Origin: a virus | Taxonomy: Duplodnaviria > Heunggongvirae > Uroviricota > Caudoviricetes | Direction: 5' to 3' (one strand) | Virus record (IMG/VR): IMGVR_UViG_2574180227_000018 | DNA length: 6,635 nt | Shown here: piece after piece, positions 1 through 6,635 of the stretch | How the letters are laid out: each line of letters begins with the position of its first letter | Numbering within the stretch: position 1 is the first letter of the stretch | Program-made: the position numbers and the translations under genes | The notes under the pieces: generated by a model | Databases searched by the model: none | The model's input: only the letters and a program-made list of their open reading frames with translations | Told to the model about the DNA's origin: nothing

Positions 1-1053
1 TTAAACTTCGTTTAACGCTTCCTGTATTCTTCGACCAATCCATTTCATGACCGGTACAGGCATTGAATTTCCAATGGCCTTATAACGATGAGCTGGAGAT
101 GAATTTTTCCATGGAATATCTGTATATCCATCGGGAAAACCTTGTAGCCTCTCGCATTCGGTTGGCGTCAACCTACGAACCCTTGAATATGGCGCTCTTT
201 CAACTATGAGCCCACCAGACATAGTCATGTCCTGGTTAGTTGTTCCGTTATAGCCAGCTATTACTGTGCCTGTTCGTTTTGGCAATGCTTCAAGGCAATA
301 TCGGTGCAATTTTCCTTCAATGCCTTGATCAAGAAGGGATTCGGATTTTTTCTTCTTTCCGTAATAGTTTTTATCGCCCTGCGACACAGGCGGGAACTCA
401 AATAATACCTTTCCGGGATCGAGCCTTTTTCCAGCACTTGCCACAACAAACACTCTTCTGCGAGCCTGGGCGACTCCGAAATATTGGGCATCAAGTACTC
501 GCCAGGCGACGATACGCGATGGTCCAGACACAACACCAGCGTTTGCCCATCTTTTCCTTGCTGGCTGTAATGCGCAACCTGCTCCGGCCAGCGCACCAAG
601 AAAATGACCGAATGCATTGTCATGGCTACTTAAAACTCCTGTGACGTTTTCCCATACGATTATTGAGGGGGATTTATTGAGCGATGCCCGAACGGTATCT
701 ATCTGATTCGCCAGTTCAACAAAAGACAGTGTTAACTGCCCCCGTGGATCTGAAAGGCCTTTTCGTTTGCCTGACATACTGAATGCCTGACACGGAGTTC
801 CACCTACAAGAATATCTGGTGCTTCAATAAGCCCATCCCTGATACGAGGCGCAAGCAAAGCCATATCACCAAGATTTGGTATATGGGGCCAGCGATATGA
901 AAGAAGTGTTGACGGGAAGTCCTCTATTTCACTGAACCATCTGGCTTTCCAGCCAAGATTGCTCCAGGCTACTGTCGCAGCTTCAATACCACTGCATACT
1001 GAACCATAGGTTAGTGACTTATCAGACTGAAAGTAATGTTTCTTGTTCCCCAC
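1..1053 (-). CDS. DNA (cytosine-5)-methyltransferase, phage-type, complete (GTG start at 1053, stop codon at 1-3)
   Basis: 350-aa ORF carrying C5-MTase motifs in canonical order: catalytic PCQ (GGTPCQAFS), ENV (VWENVTG), QxRxR (QARRRVFVV), and C-terminal RRLTPTECERLQGFPDGYT and AIGNSMPVPV. Gly-rich N-terminal motif I-like stretch (VCSGIEAA). SD-like AAGGAAA lies 7 nt upstream of the GTG. Short target-recognition region between motifs VIII and IX. Confidence 0.9.
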   Translation of the reverse strand: MGNKKHYFQSDKSLTYGSVCSGIEAATVAWSNLGWKARWFSEIEDFPSTLLSYRWPHIPNLGDMALLAPRIRDGLIEAPDILVGGTPCQAFSMSGKRKGLSDPRGQLTLSFVELANQIDTVRASLNKSPSIIVWENVTGVLSSHDNAFGHFLGALAGAGCALQPARKRWANAGVVSGPSRIVAWRVLDAQYFGVAQARRRVFVVASAGKRLDPGKVLFEFPPVSQGDKNYYGKKKKSESLLDQGIEGKLHRYCLEALPKRTGTVIAGYNGTTNQDMTMSGGLIVERAPYSRVRRLTPTECERLQGFPDGYTDIPWKNSSPAHRYKAIGNSMPVPVMKWIGRRIQEALNEV

Positions 1054-1207
1054 GGCAGGATTTCCTTGTGTATGTGGGGTGCTCTGTGGCGCTCTGAGAT
1101 GTGATTTGATTGAGGGTTTTGCAGCGCGGACATTTTACTTCCAGATAACTGAAACTGGCCCGTGCCAGTAGCTTATTGCAGTGTCGGCACCGTATGTTTC
1201 GATACAT
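1022..1207 (-). CDS. com: Com-like C4 zinc-finger protein (phage Mu Com family translational activator); overlaps the methyltransferase start by 32 nt
   Basis: Translation MYRNIRCRHCNKLLARASFSYLEVKCPRCKTLNQI...EHPTYTRKSC has two CxxC knuckles with Mu Com-like spacing and flanking residues (IRCxxCNKLL, CPRCK, EHPT), as I recall the Mu Com sequence. ATG at 1207 is preceded by AGGAGG with 10-nt spacing; the ORF track's longer form (to 1252) starts on a non-ATG codon with no SD. Its 3' end overlaps the downstream DNA-modification gene, as com does with mom. Confidence 0.7.
   Translation of the reverse strand: MYRNIRCRHCNKLLARASFSYLEVKCPRCKTLNQITSQSATEHPTYTRKSCRGEQETLLSV
1048..1079 (-). promoter_or_regulatory. 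mRNA hairpin sequestering the methyltransferase GTG start; SD lies in the loop
   Basis: Inverted repeat ccccac (1048-1053) and gtgggg (1074-1079). In the minus-strand mRNA the 6-bp GC-rich stem pairs CCCCAC with GUGGGG, which is the GTG start plus the next codon. The 20-nt loop contains the AAGGAAA SD. Confidence 0.35.
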
Positions 1208-1616
1208 GGCCGCATAACCTCCTGCTTTGTTGTTGATGCCTTTCTCATGCAATCGATCGACAAAAACGATCGATTCGGTTTGTTTAATTGATACAACAAA
1301 TAGATTGAAAAGTCATCAACAATGATTCAGGGCGGTGATTATTTACTTAAAGAAAACGAAGAGTTAGGTGGTGAAAACGATCATAAAATGATCATTTTAT
1401 TGACTTTTTATACAGTGAAGGTAGGATTGTGCGTATATGTAGTATGTTTCAAATCAATGGGATACTACATACATAAAGGGCGACCCAGATAGCGCGAACT
1501 ATTCTGGGCCGATTTAGACAATTTTGCATCAATGCTTTACTTCGAGCTCGTGGCGTATCCTATGATATTCCCCGGTCTCCTGTAAAGCAGAGATGCATAA
1601 AAAGGAGATCTTTATC
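1208..1616. promoter_or_regulatory. Divergent intergenic regulatory region containing four GATC (Dam) sites in two close pairs
   Basis: AT-rich 409-bp region between divergent com (minus) and the small + strand gene. GATC at 1255-1258 and 1268-1271 sit in repeated TCGATCGA and CGATCGAT contexts; GATC at 1379-1382 and 1390-1393 sit in the inverted repeat GATCATAAAATGATCA. TTGACT at 1400-1405 is a possible -35 for the + strand gene. Promoters not confidently placed. Confidence 0.3.
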
Positions 1617-1787
1617 ATGGATAAAGAGCCTGTTTACCCTGCCTGTAAGACTCCCTTACAGCTCATCTATCGCCGTTCTCGATCTCAAAATGGCAAGACA
1701 TACAAACCAAAAAATGCTTCCTGTTTCAGGATGCTGATATGCCCTGCCTGTTCTCCCCAGAGGGAAAATACACAAAACGTGCATTAA
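1617..1787 (+). CDS. Hypothetical small Cys-containing protein (56 aa from ATG 1617; ORF track gives 64 aa from 1593)
   Basis: AAAGGAG SD at 1601-1607, 9 nt before ATG 1617. Product MDKEPVYPACKTPLQLIYRRSRSQNGKTYKPKNASCFRMLICPACSP has a CPxC knuckle plus two more Cys and is basic. No family recognised. Confidence 0.45.
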   Translation: MDKEPVYPACKTPLQLIYRRSRSQNGKTYKPKNASCFRMLICPACSPQRENTQNVH

Positions 1788-1825: not shown

Positions 1826-2071
1826 TTACATCATAGTACCGTCAGTTCCGGGCTGAACCGGCTCTGGTTGCTCTACGGGTTGAGGAGCATTTTCCGTGCT
1901 GTTTTCAGCCGGAGAACGGCCAACCATTCGGGCCAGCACTTCATCAACATATGCGTCGATTTGTGCCTCAAAATCCTTGCGAACCTGCGCCTTCAGCACG
2001 CGGTTCACTTCTTCAGAATAAAGTGCCTGTTTGACAAGCTCTTCAGTAACCGTGCCTTTAATCTCTGGCAT
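1826..2071 (-). CDS. Hypothetical protein, 81 aa (helical N-terminal half, Pro/Glu/Gln-rich acidic tail)
   Basis: Strong SD AAGGAG 7 nt upstream of ATG 2071. Protein-like composition. Starts 35 bp downstream of the 60-aa gene, so likely co-transcribed with it. Confidence 0.6.
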   Translation of the reverse strand: MPEIKGTVTEELVKQALYSEEVNRVLKAQVRKDFEAQIDAYVDEVLARMVGRSPAENSTENAPQPVEQPEPVQPGTDGTMM

Positions 2072-2106: not shown

Positions 2107-2289
2107 TCAGAGCGGGGTCGGGTCGTTTGGGGATGATGGTGCCTGTGCTGTTTTACTGAGCTTTTCGGCTGCTGCGTCATCAATTTTGCGGCGAATATAA
2201 TTTCTGATGACCTTATAACCGCCGCTCACCAGATATAACGCACTGACCACAGCGCAGAAATAAAGCAGCATTGTATGAACGAATGTCAT
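2107..2289 (-). CDS. Hypothetical small membrane protein, 60 aa (one N-terminal transmembrane helix, charged C-terminal tail)
   Basis: SD TAAGG upstream of ATG 2289. Hydrophobic segment LLYFCAVVSALYLVSGG followed by KVIRNYIRRK. Confidence 0.5.
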   Translation of the reverse strand: MTFVHTMLLYFCAVVSALYLVSGGYKVIRNYIRRKIDDAAAEKLSKTAQAPSSPNDPTPL

Positions 2290-2358
2290 ATAACCTTACC
2301 TTTGATATTGACTACATAATTCGTTATCGGGTAAAAACATGACGAAGTGACTGGTAAC

Positions 2359-2384
2359 TACTCCTTCGGGAGTATTTTTATTTT
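2359..2384 (+). terminator. Intrinsic terminator-like hairpin, + strand orientation (6-bp stem, UUCG tetraloop, T-tract)
   Basis: tactcc ttcg ggagta followed by tttttatttt. The U-tract follows the hairpin only on the + strand. Confidence 0.4.
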
Positions 2385-2403
2385 CCTTTATGGGTTAGGT
2401 AGC

Positions 2404-2440
2404 TCCCGCCAGCCATATCATGACCGGCGGGATTTTTTTT
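2404..2440 (+). terminator. Intrinsic terminator-like hairpin, + strand orientation (7-bp GC stem, T8 tract)
   Basis: tcccgcc, a 15-nt loop, ggcggga, then tttttttt (2433-2440). On the minus strand the hairpin sits just after the esterase stop but has no following U-tract. Confidence 0.4.
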
Positions 2441-4478
2441 ATTCTGTTACCGCTTTTTTCACTTCCACCACAATGCTGTCAATCAGCACCGGGTAAGTTG
2501 CATTTTTGGTGATATCCGTTACGCGGAGTTTGTCCACCGGGAAAGTTCCTACTGGTGACTGCGTCAGGGTAAACGCGGCACCATCCTGACCATCAATAAC
2601 CGGAATAACCTGAAGGCTGTTATTTCCTGCAAAACGGAAGGCCAGCGTATGCCATTCATTATCAAATACACCAAAGGTTCCCAGTTTCTGGTTATTTGTT
2701 GCCACTTTTGCATTGTGGTGCATCACATTCAGGTCTTTTGCGTCTGTCTGGATGTAGAACGATGCCAGCAGATTATTCCCTGCATCCCCTGTCAGGGTGA
2801 CACCCTGCGGCAGAGAGGAAACCGGCCAGTAAAGCGCCATGACATACTGGTTTGCCACCAGGTCGCCAGGTACTTTAAAACGACAACTGATTAAACCACC
2901 ATTTTTCAGCAGTTCAGCACCAGTACCGGCATCATGATCCAGATACCAGGATGATTTACCTGTTTCCTTGGTCAGTTTCATTGCCTTACCACCTGTGCCT
3001 CCTGCATCACTGATAATTTCAGCTTTACCGCCAGCCGGCTCCCAGCCCTGGGCTTTCAGATTTCCTTCTGACTCACTGACACGGTAAGACAGCAGTGTTG
3101 TGGTTACTGCTTCAGTTTCTGAAGGTGACGGCACTGGTGCTTCAGTTTCAGAAGATGGAACATCGGCTTTTACTGTGGTTCGCCCTGCATGAGTCAGAAC
3201 AGCCGTGGCCAGACGGTCGGAAATAATCCCACGACGTGCCCATGAACTGAAATGGCTGGCCCGGCCCGCAGATGTCCAGGTGGCGGCACTGTTACGCCAC
3301 GTTGAGCCGTAATAACCAATGGATTCAATATCCGGGTCTTCTGTCGGATTGTTGGTGGGTACATTCGCGCCATTTTCATCTGTCATTAATGGGACGAAAT
3401 GAATGTTTTTATCTGTTTTATTTTTGTAGCCGTCATAGATTGCCTGGTATGCCTGTTCGTTTTTCTGTTTCCAGAAATACGTGGTATCGCCACAAATCCA
3501 CGGAACGCCAGCAGCACTGCCACCGGTACACTGTTCCGCCTGTTCAGCCAAGTCTGCGCGGAATTTTTCCACCATCGCCAGAAACAGCGCGGAATGCTCC
3601 GTCGGCTTCGCATCAATATCAAACTCGCCCTGCATCCACACCACAGCAAGCAGGCGGTTTTTCGGGTTCTTCGCCAGTGCCGCTTTTGTCCGGCTGATTA
3701 AGTCCTTATACAGCGGCTTATCCACACCCCAGCGGGCTGAGTCCTCTGAAGCACCCGTGCTGTCACTGTACGTGCCGTCAGCACCCGCCGTGAATGCAGA
3801 ACCACCACGGCAGCAGGGAACCAGCAGAATCCCCGCATCTGCCGGAATAAACGGCAGCAGTTTTTTGGCAATGTGAAGCCCCTGACCCACGGTGCCATAT
3901 TGCCCTTTAGCCACATCCGCTTTCGGGTGATTTTTTCCACTCATATCCTGCACATCATGCAGACAGTGGTCGGCCAGAATGATGTCGTTATACTGACAGG
4001 CTTTACCTCCCGGCGTGACTGTACTGCGACGGGCTAACTGCATAATACGCGGTTCGGGGTGGTCATATGTCTCCGGCAGCGGCAGACCTTCACCGTAGGC
4101 CATCCCGTTTGACTGACCAGCAAGAACCACCACGTAATACCAGGAAGGGGAGCTGGAAGCAGTTTCATTTCCTGACGGACGGGTATGTGTTTCAGCATTA
4201 TCCCAGTCTGACGGTTCAGCAGTACCGGCAACATCAGCACTTAACGGAATGACAGCACCAATACCCGCACCGGTAATTTCCACGCTCGGATCACCGGATA
4301 CTGGCCTTACCCACAGGCAATCCCGTGTATTAAAACTGATGAGACAGTCAGCAAATGTCATTCCTCCTTTTGTTTCGGCCGGAGGAAAGGGAGCCTCAAG
4401 AAATGCCGCTGTACCACCGGAAACTTTAACAGTAAAGTTTCCGGGCATTGATGATAGTTGAACCCATTTGGACGTCAT
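2439..4478 (-). CDS. SGNH/SASA-family carbohydrate esterase (sialate O-acetylesterase-like, prophage NanS-p-like architecture), 679 aa, three domains
   Basis: GQSN catalytic-serine motif in VVVLAGQSNGMAYGEG and a downstream WMQGEFD block, typical of sialate O-acetylesterase/SASA domains. About 110 aa of N-terminal domain, a Ser/Pro/Glu/Thr linker with tandem SETEA repeats, and about 250 aa of C-terminal Gly/Thr-rich, probably beta-rich domain. No signal peptide. ATG at 4478. Confidence 0.8.
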   Translation of the reverse strand: MTSKWVQLSSMPGNFTVKVSGGTAAFLEAPFPPAETKGGMTFADCLISFNTRDCLWVRPVSGDPSVEITGAGIGAVIPLSADVAGTAEPSDWDNAETHTRPSGNETASSSPSWYYVVVLAGQSNGMAYGEGLPLPETYDHPEPRIMQLARRSTVTPGGKACQYNDIILADHCLHDVQDMSGKNHPKADVAKGQYGTVGQGLHIAKKLLPFIPADAGILLVPCCRGGSAFTAGADGTYSDSTGASEDSARWGVDKPLYKDLISRTKAALAKNPKNRLLAVVWMQGEFDIDAKPTEHSALFLAMVEKFRADLAEQAEQCTGGSAAGVPWICGDTTYFWKQKNEQAYQAIYDGYKNKTDKNIHFVPLMTDENGANVPTNNPTEDPDIESIGYYGSTWRNSAATWTSAGRASHFSSWARRGIISDRLATAVLTHAGRTTVKADVPSSETEAPVPSPSETEAVTTTLLSYRVSESEGNLKAQGWEPAGGKAEIISDAGGTGGKAMKLTKETGKSSWYLDHDAGTGAELLKNGGLISCRFKVPGDLVANQYVMALYWPVSSLPQGVTLTGDAGNNLLASFYIQTDAKDLNVMHHNAKVATNNQKLGTFGVFDNEWHTLAFRFAGNNSLQVIPVIDGQDGAAFTLTQSPVGTFPVDKLRVTDITKNATYPVLIDSIVVEVKKAVTE

Positions 4479-4577: not shown

Positions 4578-5138
4578 TTATTTTTCCGAAACGCTCGCAG
4601 GATAATAACGATAAAGGGTTGAAAGGCCGATATCAAAAATAAGTGCCACCTGTCTTCGGCTGACACCCCCGGCCAGTAAACGCCCGACCTGCTCGTATTG
4701 TTCCTGCGTGAGACGACGGGGTCTGCCGCCGGTTCGTCCCCTTTCACGGGCAGCAGCAAGACCAGCCCGTGTCCGTTCGACAATCAATTCACGCTCCATT
4801 TCTGCCAGCGCACCCATTATGTGAAAAAAGAAGCGCCCCATGGGGGTTGACGTATCAATGTTGTCAGTAAGACTACGAAAATTTATCCCCTGTTGCTGTA
4901 ATTCATCTGTCAGCGCAACAAGGTGGCGCATACTGCGCCCCAGCCTGTCCAGTTTCCAGACCATCAGTGTGTCGCCGGGTTTTAGTTTCTTCAGTGCCCG
5001 CTTCAGTCCCGGCCGCTGCGTCGTTTTACCACTCATTTTGTCTTCAAAAATCTGCTCACATCCTGCACATTCCAGCGCATTTCTTTGTAAACCTGTGTTC
5101 TGGTCATTTGTTGATACGCGTATATAGCCAATCAGCAT
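4578..5138 (-). CDS. pin: Serine recombinase, DNA invertase of the Pin/Gin/Hin/Cin family, 186 aa
   Basis: N-terminus MLIGYIRVSTNDQNTGLQ carries the catalytic Ser motif. Resolvase-type catalytic domain (VWKLDRLGRS, MGALAEMERELI) and C-terminal HTH (GGVSRRQVALIFDIGLSTLYRY). SD AAGGAAGG 7 nt upstream of the ATG. Immediately adjacent to an inverted-repeat-bounded segment. Confidence 0.95.
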   Translation of the reverse strand: MLIGYIRVSTNDQNTGLQRNALECAGCEQIFEDKMSGKTTQRPGLKRALKKLKPGDTLMVWKLDRLGRSMRHLVALTDELQQQGINFRSLTDNIDTSTPMGRFFFHIMGALAEMERELIVERTRAGLAAARERGRTGGRPRRLTQEQYEQVGRLLAGGVSRRQVALIFDIGLSTLYRYYPASVSEK

Positions 5139-5192: not shown

Positions 5193-5218
5193 ATCCCTGA
5201 AACCTCGGTTTACGGGAA
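5193..5218. other. Left inversion crossover site (gix/pix-like: two 12-bp half-sites around central TC at 5205-5206)
   Basis: atccctgaaacc tc ggtttacgggaa is an imperfect palindrome resembling the gix/hix core (AAACC-TC-GGTTT). An identical 26-bp copy lies inverted at the right edge. Confidence 0.7.
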
Positions 5219-5226
5219 ACGGTAAA
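5201..5226. repeat. Inverted repeat, left arm (26 bp, perfect match to reverse complement of 6610-6635)
   Basis: aacctcggtttacgggaaacggtaaa compared by eye with the reverse complement of the last 26 bases of the window. Confidence 0.85.
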
Positions 5227-5587
5227 CAGGGCGGCGAATGCCCTGCCATCGAACGGAACGGCCGTTGCCGCGAACAGGCTGGCAAATGCCCACACAATTA
5301 ATGGTGTTCCCTTTGACGGAACGCAGGATATCAACATTACCTCCGGTATGACCGAAGCTGCTGCTGATAACAAATACGTTCGCAACGTTCAGCTTGGTGC
5401 CCAGAGTTACCATTCACCCGGAGGTAATGAAATGTCCTGGAGTTATGGCGCGCCTTCCGGTTGTATGCTTTCAGGTATTAACGTGCAGGAGACCGGGAGA
5501 AATTCAGCCGATAATATCGGAGGCGTTTATTACCGTCCGGTGCAGATATATATCGGTAATGCCTGGCGCACAGTTTCATCCGTCTGA
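5201..5587 (+). CDS. Silent alternative tail-fiber C-terminal cassette (Sv'-like); no start of its own in this orientation
   Basis: Open frame begins right after a TGA at 5198-5200 and runs through the recombination site to the stop at 5585-5587. The encoded NLGLRETVNRAANALPSNGTAVAANRLA...INGVPFDGTQDINITSGM... parallels the minus-strand fiber C-terminus (NLGLRETVNKAADALPSGGTAVAANRLA...INGVPFDGTRDINITSGM...), and the ends are similar (VYYRPVQIYIGNAW versus VYYRQIQYCINGNW). Confidence 0.7.
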   Translation, partial: NLGLRETVNRAANALPSNGTAVAANRLANAHTINGVPFDGTQDINITSGMTEAAADNKYVRNVQLGAQSYHSPGGNEMSWSYGAPSGCMLSGINVQETGRNSADNIGGVYYRPVQIYIGNAWRTVSSV

Positions 5588-5595
5588 TTAAAGGA

Positions 5596-5618
5596 AAAGG
5601 GTGCGATAAGCACCCTTT
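5596..5618. terminator. Bidirectional terminator hairpin between the convergent Sv' cassette and tfa (9-bp stem, 5-nt loop)
   Basis: aaagggtgc gataa gcacccttt. On the minus strand it directly follows the tfa stop and is followed by a UUUUCCUUU tract. Confidence 0.6.
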
Positions 5619-5621
5619 ACG

Positions 5622-6164
5622 TTATTCAGGCTTCTCCGGCCATTTAATGTCGTCAAATTCAGCTTTGTTTTTAATCGCTGGTAGTTCCATTTTTTTCACC
5701 TGACTGATGTATGCCATCCATCGGGTAAGTGCGGCTCTGTCTTCATCACTGATGGTGCCCAGCTGTAATTCTGTTCTCCAGTCATTAATTTTTTCATATG
5801 CCTGATTAAGATATGACTGGCGCATTGCTTCCAGTTTTCTTGCGTAGTTAACCGGAATACGGGAGATCACGCCATTATCAAACTTCCAGTTACCCGAAAT
5901 ATCAGCACCTTCAGGGAGTTCGTCGACTTCAACCACAGAGAACCCCGCAGGATACAGCGCCGAAGCGTCCTGTGATATTGAGCAGATAATGCCGCTGTCA
6001 GGTGTTATACAAAGTTTATATTTTTTTGTGAATAATGGCAGGGACTCGTAGAAATCCTTACCATCTTCACTCTGAAAATACTGTACATCATTACCATAGA
6101 GGGTATTTTCCGGGTAATATCGTTTAACATTAATCAGTTGCATAAACATCACCATGTGAATCAA
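5622..6164 (-). CDS. tfa: Tail fiber assembly protein (Tfa chaperone; P2 G / Mu U / lambda Tfa family); probable start at ATG 6143
   Basis: C-terminal region LGTISDEDRAALTRWMAYISQV...DIKWPEKPE resembles the conserved Tfa C-terminus (lambda Tfa ends ...PDIEWPAVP), with SEDGKDFYE and ADISGNWKFDNGVI blocks upstream. The ORF-track start at 6164 is a TTG without SD; ATG 6143 has a GGTGA SD. Confidence 0.85.
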   Translation of the reverse strand: MIHMVMFMQLINVKRYYPENTLYGNDVQYFQSEDGKDFYESLPLFTKKYKLCITPDSGIICSISQDASALYPAGFSVVEVDELPEGADISGNWKFDNGVISRIPVNYARKLEAMRQSYLNQAYEKINDWRTELQLGTISDEDRAALTRWMAYISQVKKMELPAIKNKAEFDDIKWPEKPE

Positions 6165-6263: not shown

Positions 6264-6635
6264 TTAAATACTTGCAGCGGATACCCAATTCCCATTAATA
6301 CAATATTGTATCTGTCTGTAATAAACACGGTCATCACCACCACGCATTTCCCAGTCTCCGTCAGTCTTAAAACCGGTAATCACATTTCCTGATGACAGGG
6401 AGTAATTATATTCCAGTACGCCGCTTAATGCCTGCGCTCCCAGTCTTACCCCTGTAACATAACGCTGATTGGCCGTTGATTCCGGCATTCCTGACGTAAT
6501 GTTTATATCCCGCGTCCCGTCGAAAGGAACACCATTAATATTTCTTGGGGTGGCGAGTCTGTTTGCTGCCACGGCGGTTCCCCCCGATGGCAGGGCATCA
6601 GCGGCCTTATTTACCGTTTCCCGTAAACCGAGGTT
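6264..6635 (-). CDS. Tail fiber protein, C-terminal variable part (Sv-like), 5'-truncated by the window edge; currently expressed orientation
   Basis: The reading frame is open from the last base of the window through the inverted repeat to the stop at 6264-6266. The ORF-track GTG at 6572 is internal. Homologous to the + strand cassette. Confidence 0.8.
   Translation of the reverse strand, partial: NLGLRETVNKAADALPSGGTAVAANRLATPRNINGVPFDGTRDINITSGMPESTANQRYVTGVRLGAQALSGVLEYNYSLSSGNVITGFKTDGDWEMRGGDDRVYYRQIQYCINGNWVSAASI
6610..6635. repeat. Inverted repeat, right arm (26 bp), part of the right inversion site, which continues past the window edge
   Basis: Reverse complement equals 5201-5226. 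The predicted crossover dinucleotide is at 6630-6631, so the outer half-site lies beyond the window. Confidence 0.85.

Follow-up and report, generated by a model that had tools for sequence, protein, structure and literature searches.

The spacer between a nanS-p-like gene and a DUF1378 gene of a Mu-like Escherichia coli prophage carries two hairpins that look like terminators on the plus strand, in a place where the flanking genes run on the minus strand. What do these hairpins terminate? An earlier reading of the DNA, made from the letters alone (the sequence-only reading), proposed a short plus-strand RNA ending at the hairpins, antisense to the 5' leader of the DUF1378 mRNA and laid out like a type I toxin-antitoxin locus. 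The analysis presented here leads us to conclude that the region is very probably an Hfq-dependent, terminator-bounded sRNA gene and an orthologue of EcOnc37 from the O157:H7 strain Sakai. The RNA part of the earlier proposal is already in the literature, where it is a catalogued sRNA candidate.

The window, meaning the whole 6,635-nt (6.6-kb) stretch of DNA analysed, is the right end of a Mu-like E. coli prophage and matches E. coli prophages, including relatives of Sakai Sp18, at 94-99.9% identity. Positions 1700-2900 share 99.9% identity with two complete E. coli chromosomes and ~98% identity with many O157, O26, O103, and O111 strains; segments labelled "inserted Bacteriophage Mu-like phage" in two Stx phage records match at 94% identity. 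The genes of the window that are relevant here are the following:

1-1053, minus strand: C5 DNA methyltransferase.
1022-1252, minus strand: Com zinc-ribbon protein.
1322-1787, plus strand: frameshifted homologue of Sakai ECs_4996, the sole plus-strand gene of the region.
1826-2071, minus strand: DUF826 protein.
2107-2289, minus strand: DUF1378, a 60-aa membrane protein (Pfam PF07125, E = 1.2e-38; PHROG 494).
2439-4478, minus strand: NanS-p-like sialate O-acetylesterase (SASA and DUF6645), convergent with the putative sRNA gene.
4578-5138, minus strand: Gin-type invertase.

The usual place of the nanS-p/DUF1378/DUF826 trio is the lambdoid late operon, directly 5' of the holin gene, so the cassette was acquired by the Mu-like phage. 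Other features of the window were recorded as side observations. The ECs_4996 homologue (PHROG 26524) is split by a frameshift into ORFs 1322-1492 and 1593-1787, and its orthologue in DETEC-S792 is a pseudogene according to PGAP. Between the end of this plus-strand pseudogene (1787) and the end of the DUF826 gene (1826) lies a perfect 8-bp hairpin, CCGGCAGG-GAAA-CCTGCCGG (1797-1816), overlapped by a weaker stem (1793-1808) that the scan flagged as a minus-strand terminator; the hairpin is probably a two-way terminator. The Com-type zinc-ribbon ORF overlaps the start of the C5 DNA cytosine methyltransferase gene, which stands in the position held by mom in phage Mu and by a 'DNA modification protein' in Sakai Sp18, and it seems that one cargo gene has replaced another under the presumed control of Com. 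Inverted repeats at 5201-5356 and 6480-6635 (83 nt and 60 nt, 83% complementary) enclose ~1.1-1.3 kb with the tail-fibre C-terminal and tail-fibre-assembly ORFs, adjoining the Gin-type invertase gene. This is a G-segment-like invertible region, and the tail-fibre assembly gene apparently runs opposite to its counterpart in DETEC-S792, whose record is nearly identical. Weak Rfam matches at 5586-5668 on the minus strand (sraA, 22 bits; SR1 antisense, 17 bits), far under the gathering scores, reflect just a GC hairpin and U-run terminator 3' of the tail-fibre assembly gene.

The two hairpins and the T-tracts that follow them are arranged as follows:

2359-2374, plus strand: T1 (hairpin 1), TACTCC-TTCG-GGAGTA, a 6-bp stem with a UUCG loop, followed by TTTTTATTTT at 2375-2384.
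2375-2403, plus strand: U-rich tail of T1 (TTTTTATTTT, 2375-2384) and U-rich linker, a probable Hfq contact judging from the mapped CRAC peak.
2404-2432, plus strand: T2 (hairpin 2), GC-rich stem TCCCGCC...GGCGGGA.
2433-2440, plus strand: T8 tract of T2, its last two bases overlapping the stop codon of the nanS-p-like gene on the opposite strand.

Sequence, folding, and strand check agree that both hairpins lie where the sequence-only reading had placed them and are terminator-shaped on the plus strand only. Folded alone as plus-strand RNA, T1 reaches -7.9 kcal/mol (z -3.67) and T2 -14.7 kcal/mol (z -3.24), with 0 of 200 shuffles as good in either case. The combination that marks an intrinsic terminator, a GC-rich stem-loop and a U-tract, is present in both hairpins on the plus strand and in neither on the minus strand. 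Viewed from the minus strand, A-runs precede the hairpins and non-U-rich sequence follows them, so the terminator form exists only on the plus strand. A consensus terminator scan called T1 a plus-strand terminator and missed T2 because its perfect stem leaves a loop of more than 8 nt. The earlier observation that no credible plus-strand gene ends here and that the flanking genes run on the minus strand also holds: the nearest plus-strand gene, the ECs_4996-like pseudogene, ends 570 nt upstream, at 1787, with its own hairpin at 1797-1816. An ORF on the plus strand at 2347-2496 (49 aa, GTG start) was not taken as a gene, since it reads through both terminators.

The stem of T2 is stable on the other strand too. 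In this spacer type, T2 as a minus-strand RNA forms 13 bp with -23.2 kcal/mol (z -5.08) versus -14.7 kcal/mol on the plus strand, because two G-U pairs of the minus-strand stem are A-C mismatches on the plus strand; the stems of the remaining spacer types are as good on one strand as on the other. The spacer as a whole likewise folds better as minus-strand RNA (z -4.47 versus -2.08).

A published RNA matches the position and strand of these terminators. The 149-nt spacer of the window is 96.3% identical over 161 nt to the spacer between ECs4993 and ECs4994 in Sakai Sp18, which has the same flanking genes, with the RNA in antisense orientation; of 5426 complete E. coli genomes, 174 contain the 161-nt spacer at a coverage of at least 80%. 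EcOnc37 appears in Table S2 of Tree et al. 2014 (PMC4104026), which places it on the minus strand of Sp18 (5077340-5077410) and credits it with a Rho-independent terminator and Hfq binding in 5 of 5 CRAC datasets from Sakai, without a Northern blot entry. ECs_4993 and ECs_4994 are on the plus strand of the Sakai record and EcOnc37 is on its minus strand; therefore, EcOnc37 corresponds to the plus strand of the window.

The reads themselves agree with this assignment. RNase E CLASH reads called EcOnc37 by Waters et al. 2016 (PMC5286369) include UUUAUGGGUUAGGUAGCUCCCGCCAGCCA, UUUUCCUUUAUGGG...CCAUAUC, ...CCACUCCUUCGGGAGU, and AUUCGUUAUCGGGUAAAAACAUCGAAGCGACUGAUAACCACUCCUUCGGGAGU, and their sequences are those of the window plus strand across 2319-2420. 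One read (5077401-5077373, TTTATGGGTTAGGTAGCTCCCGCCAGCCA) equals window positions 2388-2416 on the plus strand, another (5077407-5077369) runs from the linker into the 5' arm of T2, several span hairpin 1 (..CCACTCCTTCGGGAGT), and one (5077467-5077415) equals window positions 2319-2373 (PMC5286369). These read sequences served as the anchor for converting Sakai coordinates to those of the window. On this scale, the Hfq CRAC peak of Sakai falls at window positions ~2379-2450, that is, on the U-rich linker, T2, and the U-tail. A U-rich stretch followed by a terminator hairpin and a long U-tail is the usual Hfq-binding module of enterobacterial sRNAs. The short plus-strand RNA ending at these terminators, which had been a guess, is thus supported by Hfq CRAC and CLASH reads from a locus of 96% identity.

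In the portion of the CLASH tables covered here, nearly all EcOnc37 partners are single reads with weak statistics, and one partner has 4 reads (PMC5286369), so no target is established. Several of the Sakai hybrids in that portion pair via CGAAGCGAC / GAUAACCACUCC, the equivalent of the 5' stretch of the window RNA. An intramolecular RNase E CLASH hybrid from Sakai joins the two arms of T2 in the sense orientation, in the 3'UTR of ECs4993 (PMC5286369). A full-text literature search for EcOnc37, EcOnc33, and ECs4993-4996 found no main-text mention, the data being confined to supplements. At the locus, a search against all Rfam families with E up to 10 returned noise only (anti-hemB, 15.7 bits versus a gathering score of 49.5), so no curated family covers it, and there is no PGAP annotation.

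The candidate promoter elements and the predicted RNA are these:

2308-2313, plus strand: candidate -35 element TTGACT; TTGAC(T/A/G) is conserved in 16 spacer variants.
2332-2337, plus strand: -10-like element TAAAAA; TAAAA is invariant in all variants, and the element is non-canonical, with the last T missing.
2344-2345, plus strand: predicted transcription start, the 7th-8th base after the -10 element, the 7th being G2344.
2344-2358, plus strand: 5' unstructured region GAAGUGACUGGUAAC, unpaired in the centroid fold, a candidate seed.
2344-2440, plus strand: predicted full-length sRNA of ~97 nt, based on EcOnc37 orthology, CLASH reads, and the CRAC peak.

The sequence-only reading had seen no convincing promoter by eye, and in this it agrees with our consensus promoter scan of 1700-2900, which gave no sites; the comparison of spacers described below, however, disclosed the candidate TTGACT-N18-TAAAAA. 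Applied to the Northern-verified RNA EcOnc33, the scan overlooks the promoter region as well, and its negative outcome therefore weighs little. The motif TTGACT-18 nt-TAAAAA occurs once in the window versus 0.02 expected occurrences. Within the part of the CLASH data covered, three Sakai reads with EcOnc37 as the 5' partner start at 5077442 or 5077441, 7-8 nt after TAAAAA, and two start upstream, at the window equivalents of 2337 and 2319. As far as these reads go, some of the plus-strand RNA starts further upstream or the start site differs, and it is mainly because of the two upstream reads that the start at ~2344 is provisional. Together, these data suggest that the plus-strand sRNA probably has its own promoter, with a non-canonical -10 element. 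Other sequences considered as promoter elements (CATAAT at 2315-2320, TTGATA-N17-TATCGG, and TATAAC at 2289-2294) were rejected, as they had no partner hexamer or were not conserved in other spacer types.

To place the spacer among its relatives, we compared the regions upstream of DUF1378 in 63 IMG/VR loci, Sakai Sp18, Sakai Sp6, and two other E. coli prophages. This set contains 20 distinct upstream sequences, 16 of them with nanS-p upstream. All 16 nanS-p variants (65 loci) carry TTGAC(T/A/G) and TAAAA(A/C) separated by 18 nt (17 in one type), and all 16 have a GC-rich hairpin whose tract of 5-8 T ends 73-104 nt past the predicted start. The sequence separating the promoter hexamers, the body of the RNA, and the loop of the terminator differ widely among them. 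In one IMG/VR locus (L061; 660-817, minus strand), an 11-bp deletion takes one of two tandem TTGACA copies, and the other stands exactly 18 nt before TAAAAC.

T1 is restricted to the Mu-type (type A) spacer variants, and all the diverged nanS-p/DUF1378 spacers examined retain the T2 stem followed by 5-8 T. Compensatory changes affect 2 of the 10 stem pairs of T2 (CG<->GC/GU and GC<->AU), and the loop length varies from 15 to 24 nt. The covariation score is 0.142 versus 0.048 in shuffles, a value reached by 1 of 500 shuffles; the conservation of T2 with compensatory changes exceeds chance expectation.

Intact DUF1378 ORFs of 48-57 aa that have no nanS-p upstream (loci L064, L066/L069, and L067) show neither the promoter motif nor an antisense terminator within 300 nt, and locus L065 has a single weak terminator-like site 228-259 nt upstream of DUF1378. 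Among the loci examined, the antisense unit was seen only where nanS-p lies upstream. A profile search of genome contigs with the DUF1378 alignment found one locus, in Cedecea neteri, without the antisense unit. In a separate observation, the Mu-like prophage of JE86-ST05 contains a lambdoid 'type B' spacer, and the cassette with its antisense unit has therefore moved between phage types more than once.

The lambdoid phages have an RNA in the same place. CLASH reads ending in ...CCCTGCCCCGGCGGCCTTTTTT, which are labelled EcOnc33, match the antisense terminator found in the most frequent type of lambdoid spacer and map to the Sakai minus strand between nanS-p (ECs_1527) and DUF1378 (ECs_1528) of Sp6. 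For EcOnc33, Table S2 of Tree et al. 2014 (PMC4104026) records an Hfq peak, seen in 5 datasets, together with a terminator and a ~71-nt band on a Northern blot. One EcOnc33 read begins with CTGCATG, 7 nt past the TAAAAA of its unit. The Mu-type unit has ~23 extra nt, which form hairpin 1. The same table gives no homologue for EcOnc33 or EcOnc37 (PMC4104026), so the link between the two is one that we infer.

Taken together, the spacer between the nanS-p-like gene and DUF1378 of the Mu-like prophage very probably holds an independent antisense transcription unit on the plus strand. A sigma-70-type promoter (2308-2337) would start the RNA at ~2344, as suggested by conservation and by the 5' ends of published reads. 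The weak terminator T1 (2359-2384; 6-bp stem) may release a form of ~40 nt, and the strong terminator T2 (2404-2440) would end most transcripts at ~97 nt; the RNA is documented in Sakai, and its exact 3' end is predicted. Hfq presumably contacts the U-rich linker, T2, and the U-tail here as CRAC recorded in Sakai, and the RNA would then most likely pair with its targets in an Hfq-dependent manner via its unstructured 5' part, GAAGUGACUGGUAAC, the putative pairing region. Since the RNA is complementary without mismatch to the sense transcript at the nanS-p/DUF1378 junction, an action in cis on the late transcript is also possible. Given the greater stability of T2 on the minus strand and the RNase E hybrid in the sense orientation, the hairpin may in addition serve the nanS-p mRNA, capping or processing it, besides its role in the sRNA.

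An extension of this scheme, which we consider unlikely, is that the EcOnc33/EcOnc37 unit is a conserved cis-antisense element guarding the entry to the lysis cassette (DUF1378-DUF826-holin) in lambdoid prophages, the Mu-like copy having been carried along with the nanS-p cassette. If so, the RNA or convergent transcription would destroy or block leaky late transcripts in lysogens before they reach the holin gene, and the unit would be functionally a type I-like antitoxin for lysis genes.

Other explanations for the locus share parts of this evidence. The toxin-antitoxin proposal holds that the plus-strand RNA is a type I antitoxin that blocks translation of the DUF1378 mRNA or destabilises it, as in hok/sok or through a standby site as in tisB/istR-1. 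DUF1378 has 60 aa, a single hydrophobic helix at its N terminus, and a basic tail; the gene for the antisense RNA lies directly upstream of it, and this RNA is complementary to the sense RNA across 2344-2440. The predicted fold of the sense leader pairs the SD with 2329-2341, adjoining the region targeted by the sRNA; a standby site like that of tisB/istR-1 is compatible with this geometry. However, the predicted RNA (2344-2440) starts at ~2344, which leaves 44 nt to the SD (~2293-2300) and 55 nt to the start codon (2287-2289), so the SD is not covered, and the earlier suggestion that the RNA is antisense to this SD falls short by those 44 nt. DUF1378 matches only PF07125 in Pfam and no Hok, Ldr, TisB, Ibs, or Fst family, PHROG 494 is without function, and the consensus scan gave no promoter from which DUF1378 could be transcribed separately. 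The lambdoid DUF1378 gene sits inside the late operon, with nanS-p before it and the holin gene after it, and the RNA in Sakai binds Hfq strongly and hybridises with many unlinked mRNAs. The hok/sok reading is unsupported given that the DUF1378 genes of L064, L066/L069, and L067 without nanS-p lack the antisense unit (L065 having its one weak site) and that the RNA starts 44 nt from the SD. With no toxin family, no promoter for DUF1378, no constant co-occurrence, and an RNA bound by Hfq, we consider the type I layout very unlikely. A conserved TTTTTA in the sense strand was also tried as an anti-SD and rejected: the idea fits this spacer type only, and the type C leader is unstructured (z -0.28) with a different SD.

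The hairpins could instead act as insulating terminators of plus-strand transcripts from far upstream, started in the ECs_4996-like gene or in host DNA outside the prophage end, in which case the Hfq-bound RNA would be a 3' fragment of read-through. This is suggested by the two reads that begin upstream of the predicted start in the part of the Sakai CLASH data covered, by the presence of a plus-strand gene at 1322-1787, and by the poor -10 element of the sRNA. Yet the ECs_4996-like gene is a frameshifted pseudogene in the window and is followed by the perfect 8-bp hairpin with a GAAA loop (1797-1816), the CLASH tables hold no antisense ECs4994 or ECs4995 fragments, the same promoter and terminator are kept in lambdoid contexts that have no ECs_4996-like gene, and the lambdoid homologue EcOnc33 is a discrete RNA of ~71 nt; read-through is thus quite improbable as the source of the RNA. 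A function in the sense RNA, with the hairpins acting as 3' stabilisers or processing sites for the nanS-p mRNA or giving DUF1378 a structured leader, and their terminator look on the plus strand incidental or a relic, would account for the lower minus-strand energy of T2 (-23.2 versus -14.7 kcal/mol; z -5.08), the better fold of the whole spacer as minus-strand RNA, and the RNase E hybrid of the T2 arms in the sense 3'UTR of ECs4993. Against it, the A-run of the sense strand, which is the T-run of the antisense strand, is kept in every variant and 0 variants have a U-run after the hairpin in the sense direction; other spacer types have an equally good stem on both strands, and the Hfq-bound plus-strand RNA is directly documented in Sakai. 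As a replacement for the sRNA gene, a sense-strand function is highly improbable; use of T2 in the sense strand is more likely a second use alongside the sRNA gene.

The main value of identifying an sRNA gene of the EcOnc37 type here is one of annotation, as an unannotated spacer of a common O157-type Mu-like prophage holds a detected Hfq-binding sRNA gene. Comparison of the loci adds several proposals that we did not find stated in the literature searched: a candidate promoter, TTGACN-N18-TAAAAN, that appears to be kept together with the antisense-facing terminator while the body diverges; the probable positional homology of EcOnc37 (Sp18) and the Northern-verified EcOnc33 (Sp6); and, at the loci examined, an apparent link between the unit and the nanS-p/DUF1378 junction in lambdoid and Mu-like phages alike. 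The unit lies just upstream of the lambdoid lysis genes, and its function could be of interest, whether in trans on the host or in cis on the late transcript.

Among known systems, hok/sok resembles the locus in having a short antisense RNA beside and opposite the gene of a small single-helix membrane protein; it differs in that the window RNA has no overlap with the translation initiation region and DUF1378 stands outside the known toxin families. The anti-sRNAs AgvB and AsxR, as well as StxS and HnrS, are similar in being short, prophage-encoded, Hfq-associated RNAs with intrinsic terminators from the late or moron regions of O157 prophages. They differ in place: AsxR and AgvB are encoded immediately 3' of PR' and stx, StxS lies in the interval from PR' to tR', and HnrS belongs to the late genes of Sp9, Sp10, and Sp12. 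They also have no sequence similarity with EcOnc37 (the EcOnc10 read UCUACCCAAUCAGUACAUUACUGCUGUGA is unrelated). Position and sequence rule out HnrS (EcOnc10-12), AsxR, and AgvB as the identity of the window RNA.

EcOnc37 itself comes from the same prophage type and has the same spacer, strand, two hairpins, and T-tracts as the window. It belongs to another strain and differs by a small number of substitutions and indels that fall mainly in its 5' part (GAAGUGACUGGUAAC in the window versus AGCGACUGAUAAC in Sakai), by a hairpin 1 of 5 bp rather than the 6 bp of the window, and by a T7 rather than a T8 tail. EcOnc33 shares the antisense position, the TTGACA-N18-TAAAAA arrangement, and a homologous GC-rich terminator stem with a T-run (GCCGCC...GGCGGC versus CCCGCC...GGCGGG in the window), while it lacks hairpin 1, is ~23 nt shorter, and has a 5' body of unrelated sequence (CUGCAUGUUUUGCUUUGGAUAUAAC...). 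By this comparison, EcOnc33 and EcOnc37 appear to be variants of a single transcription unit found together with the nanS-p/DUF1378 junction.
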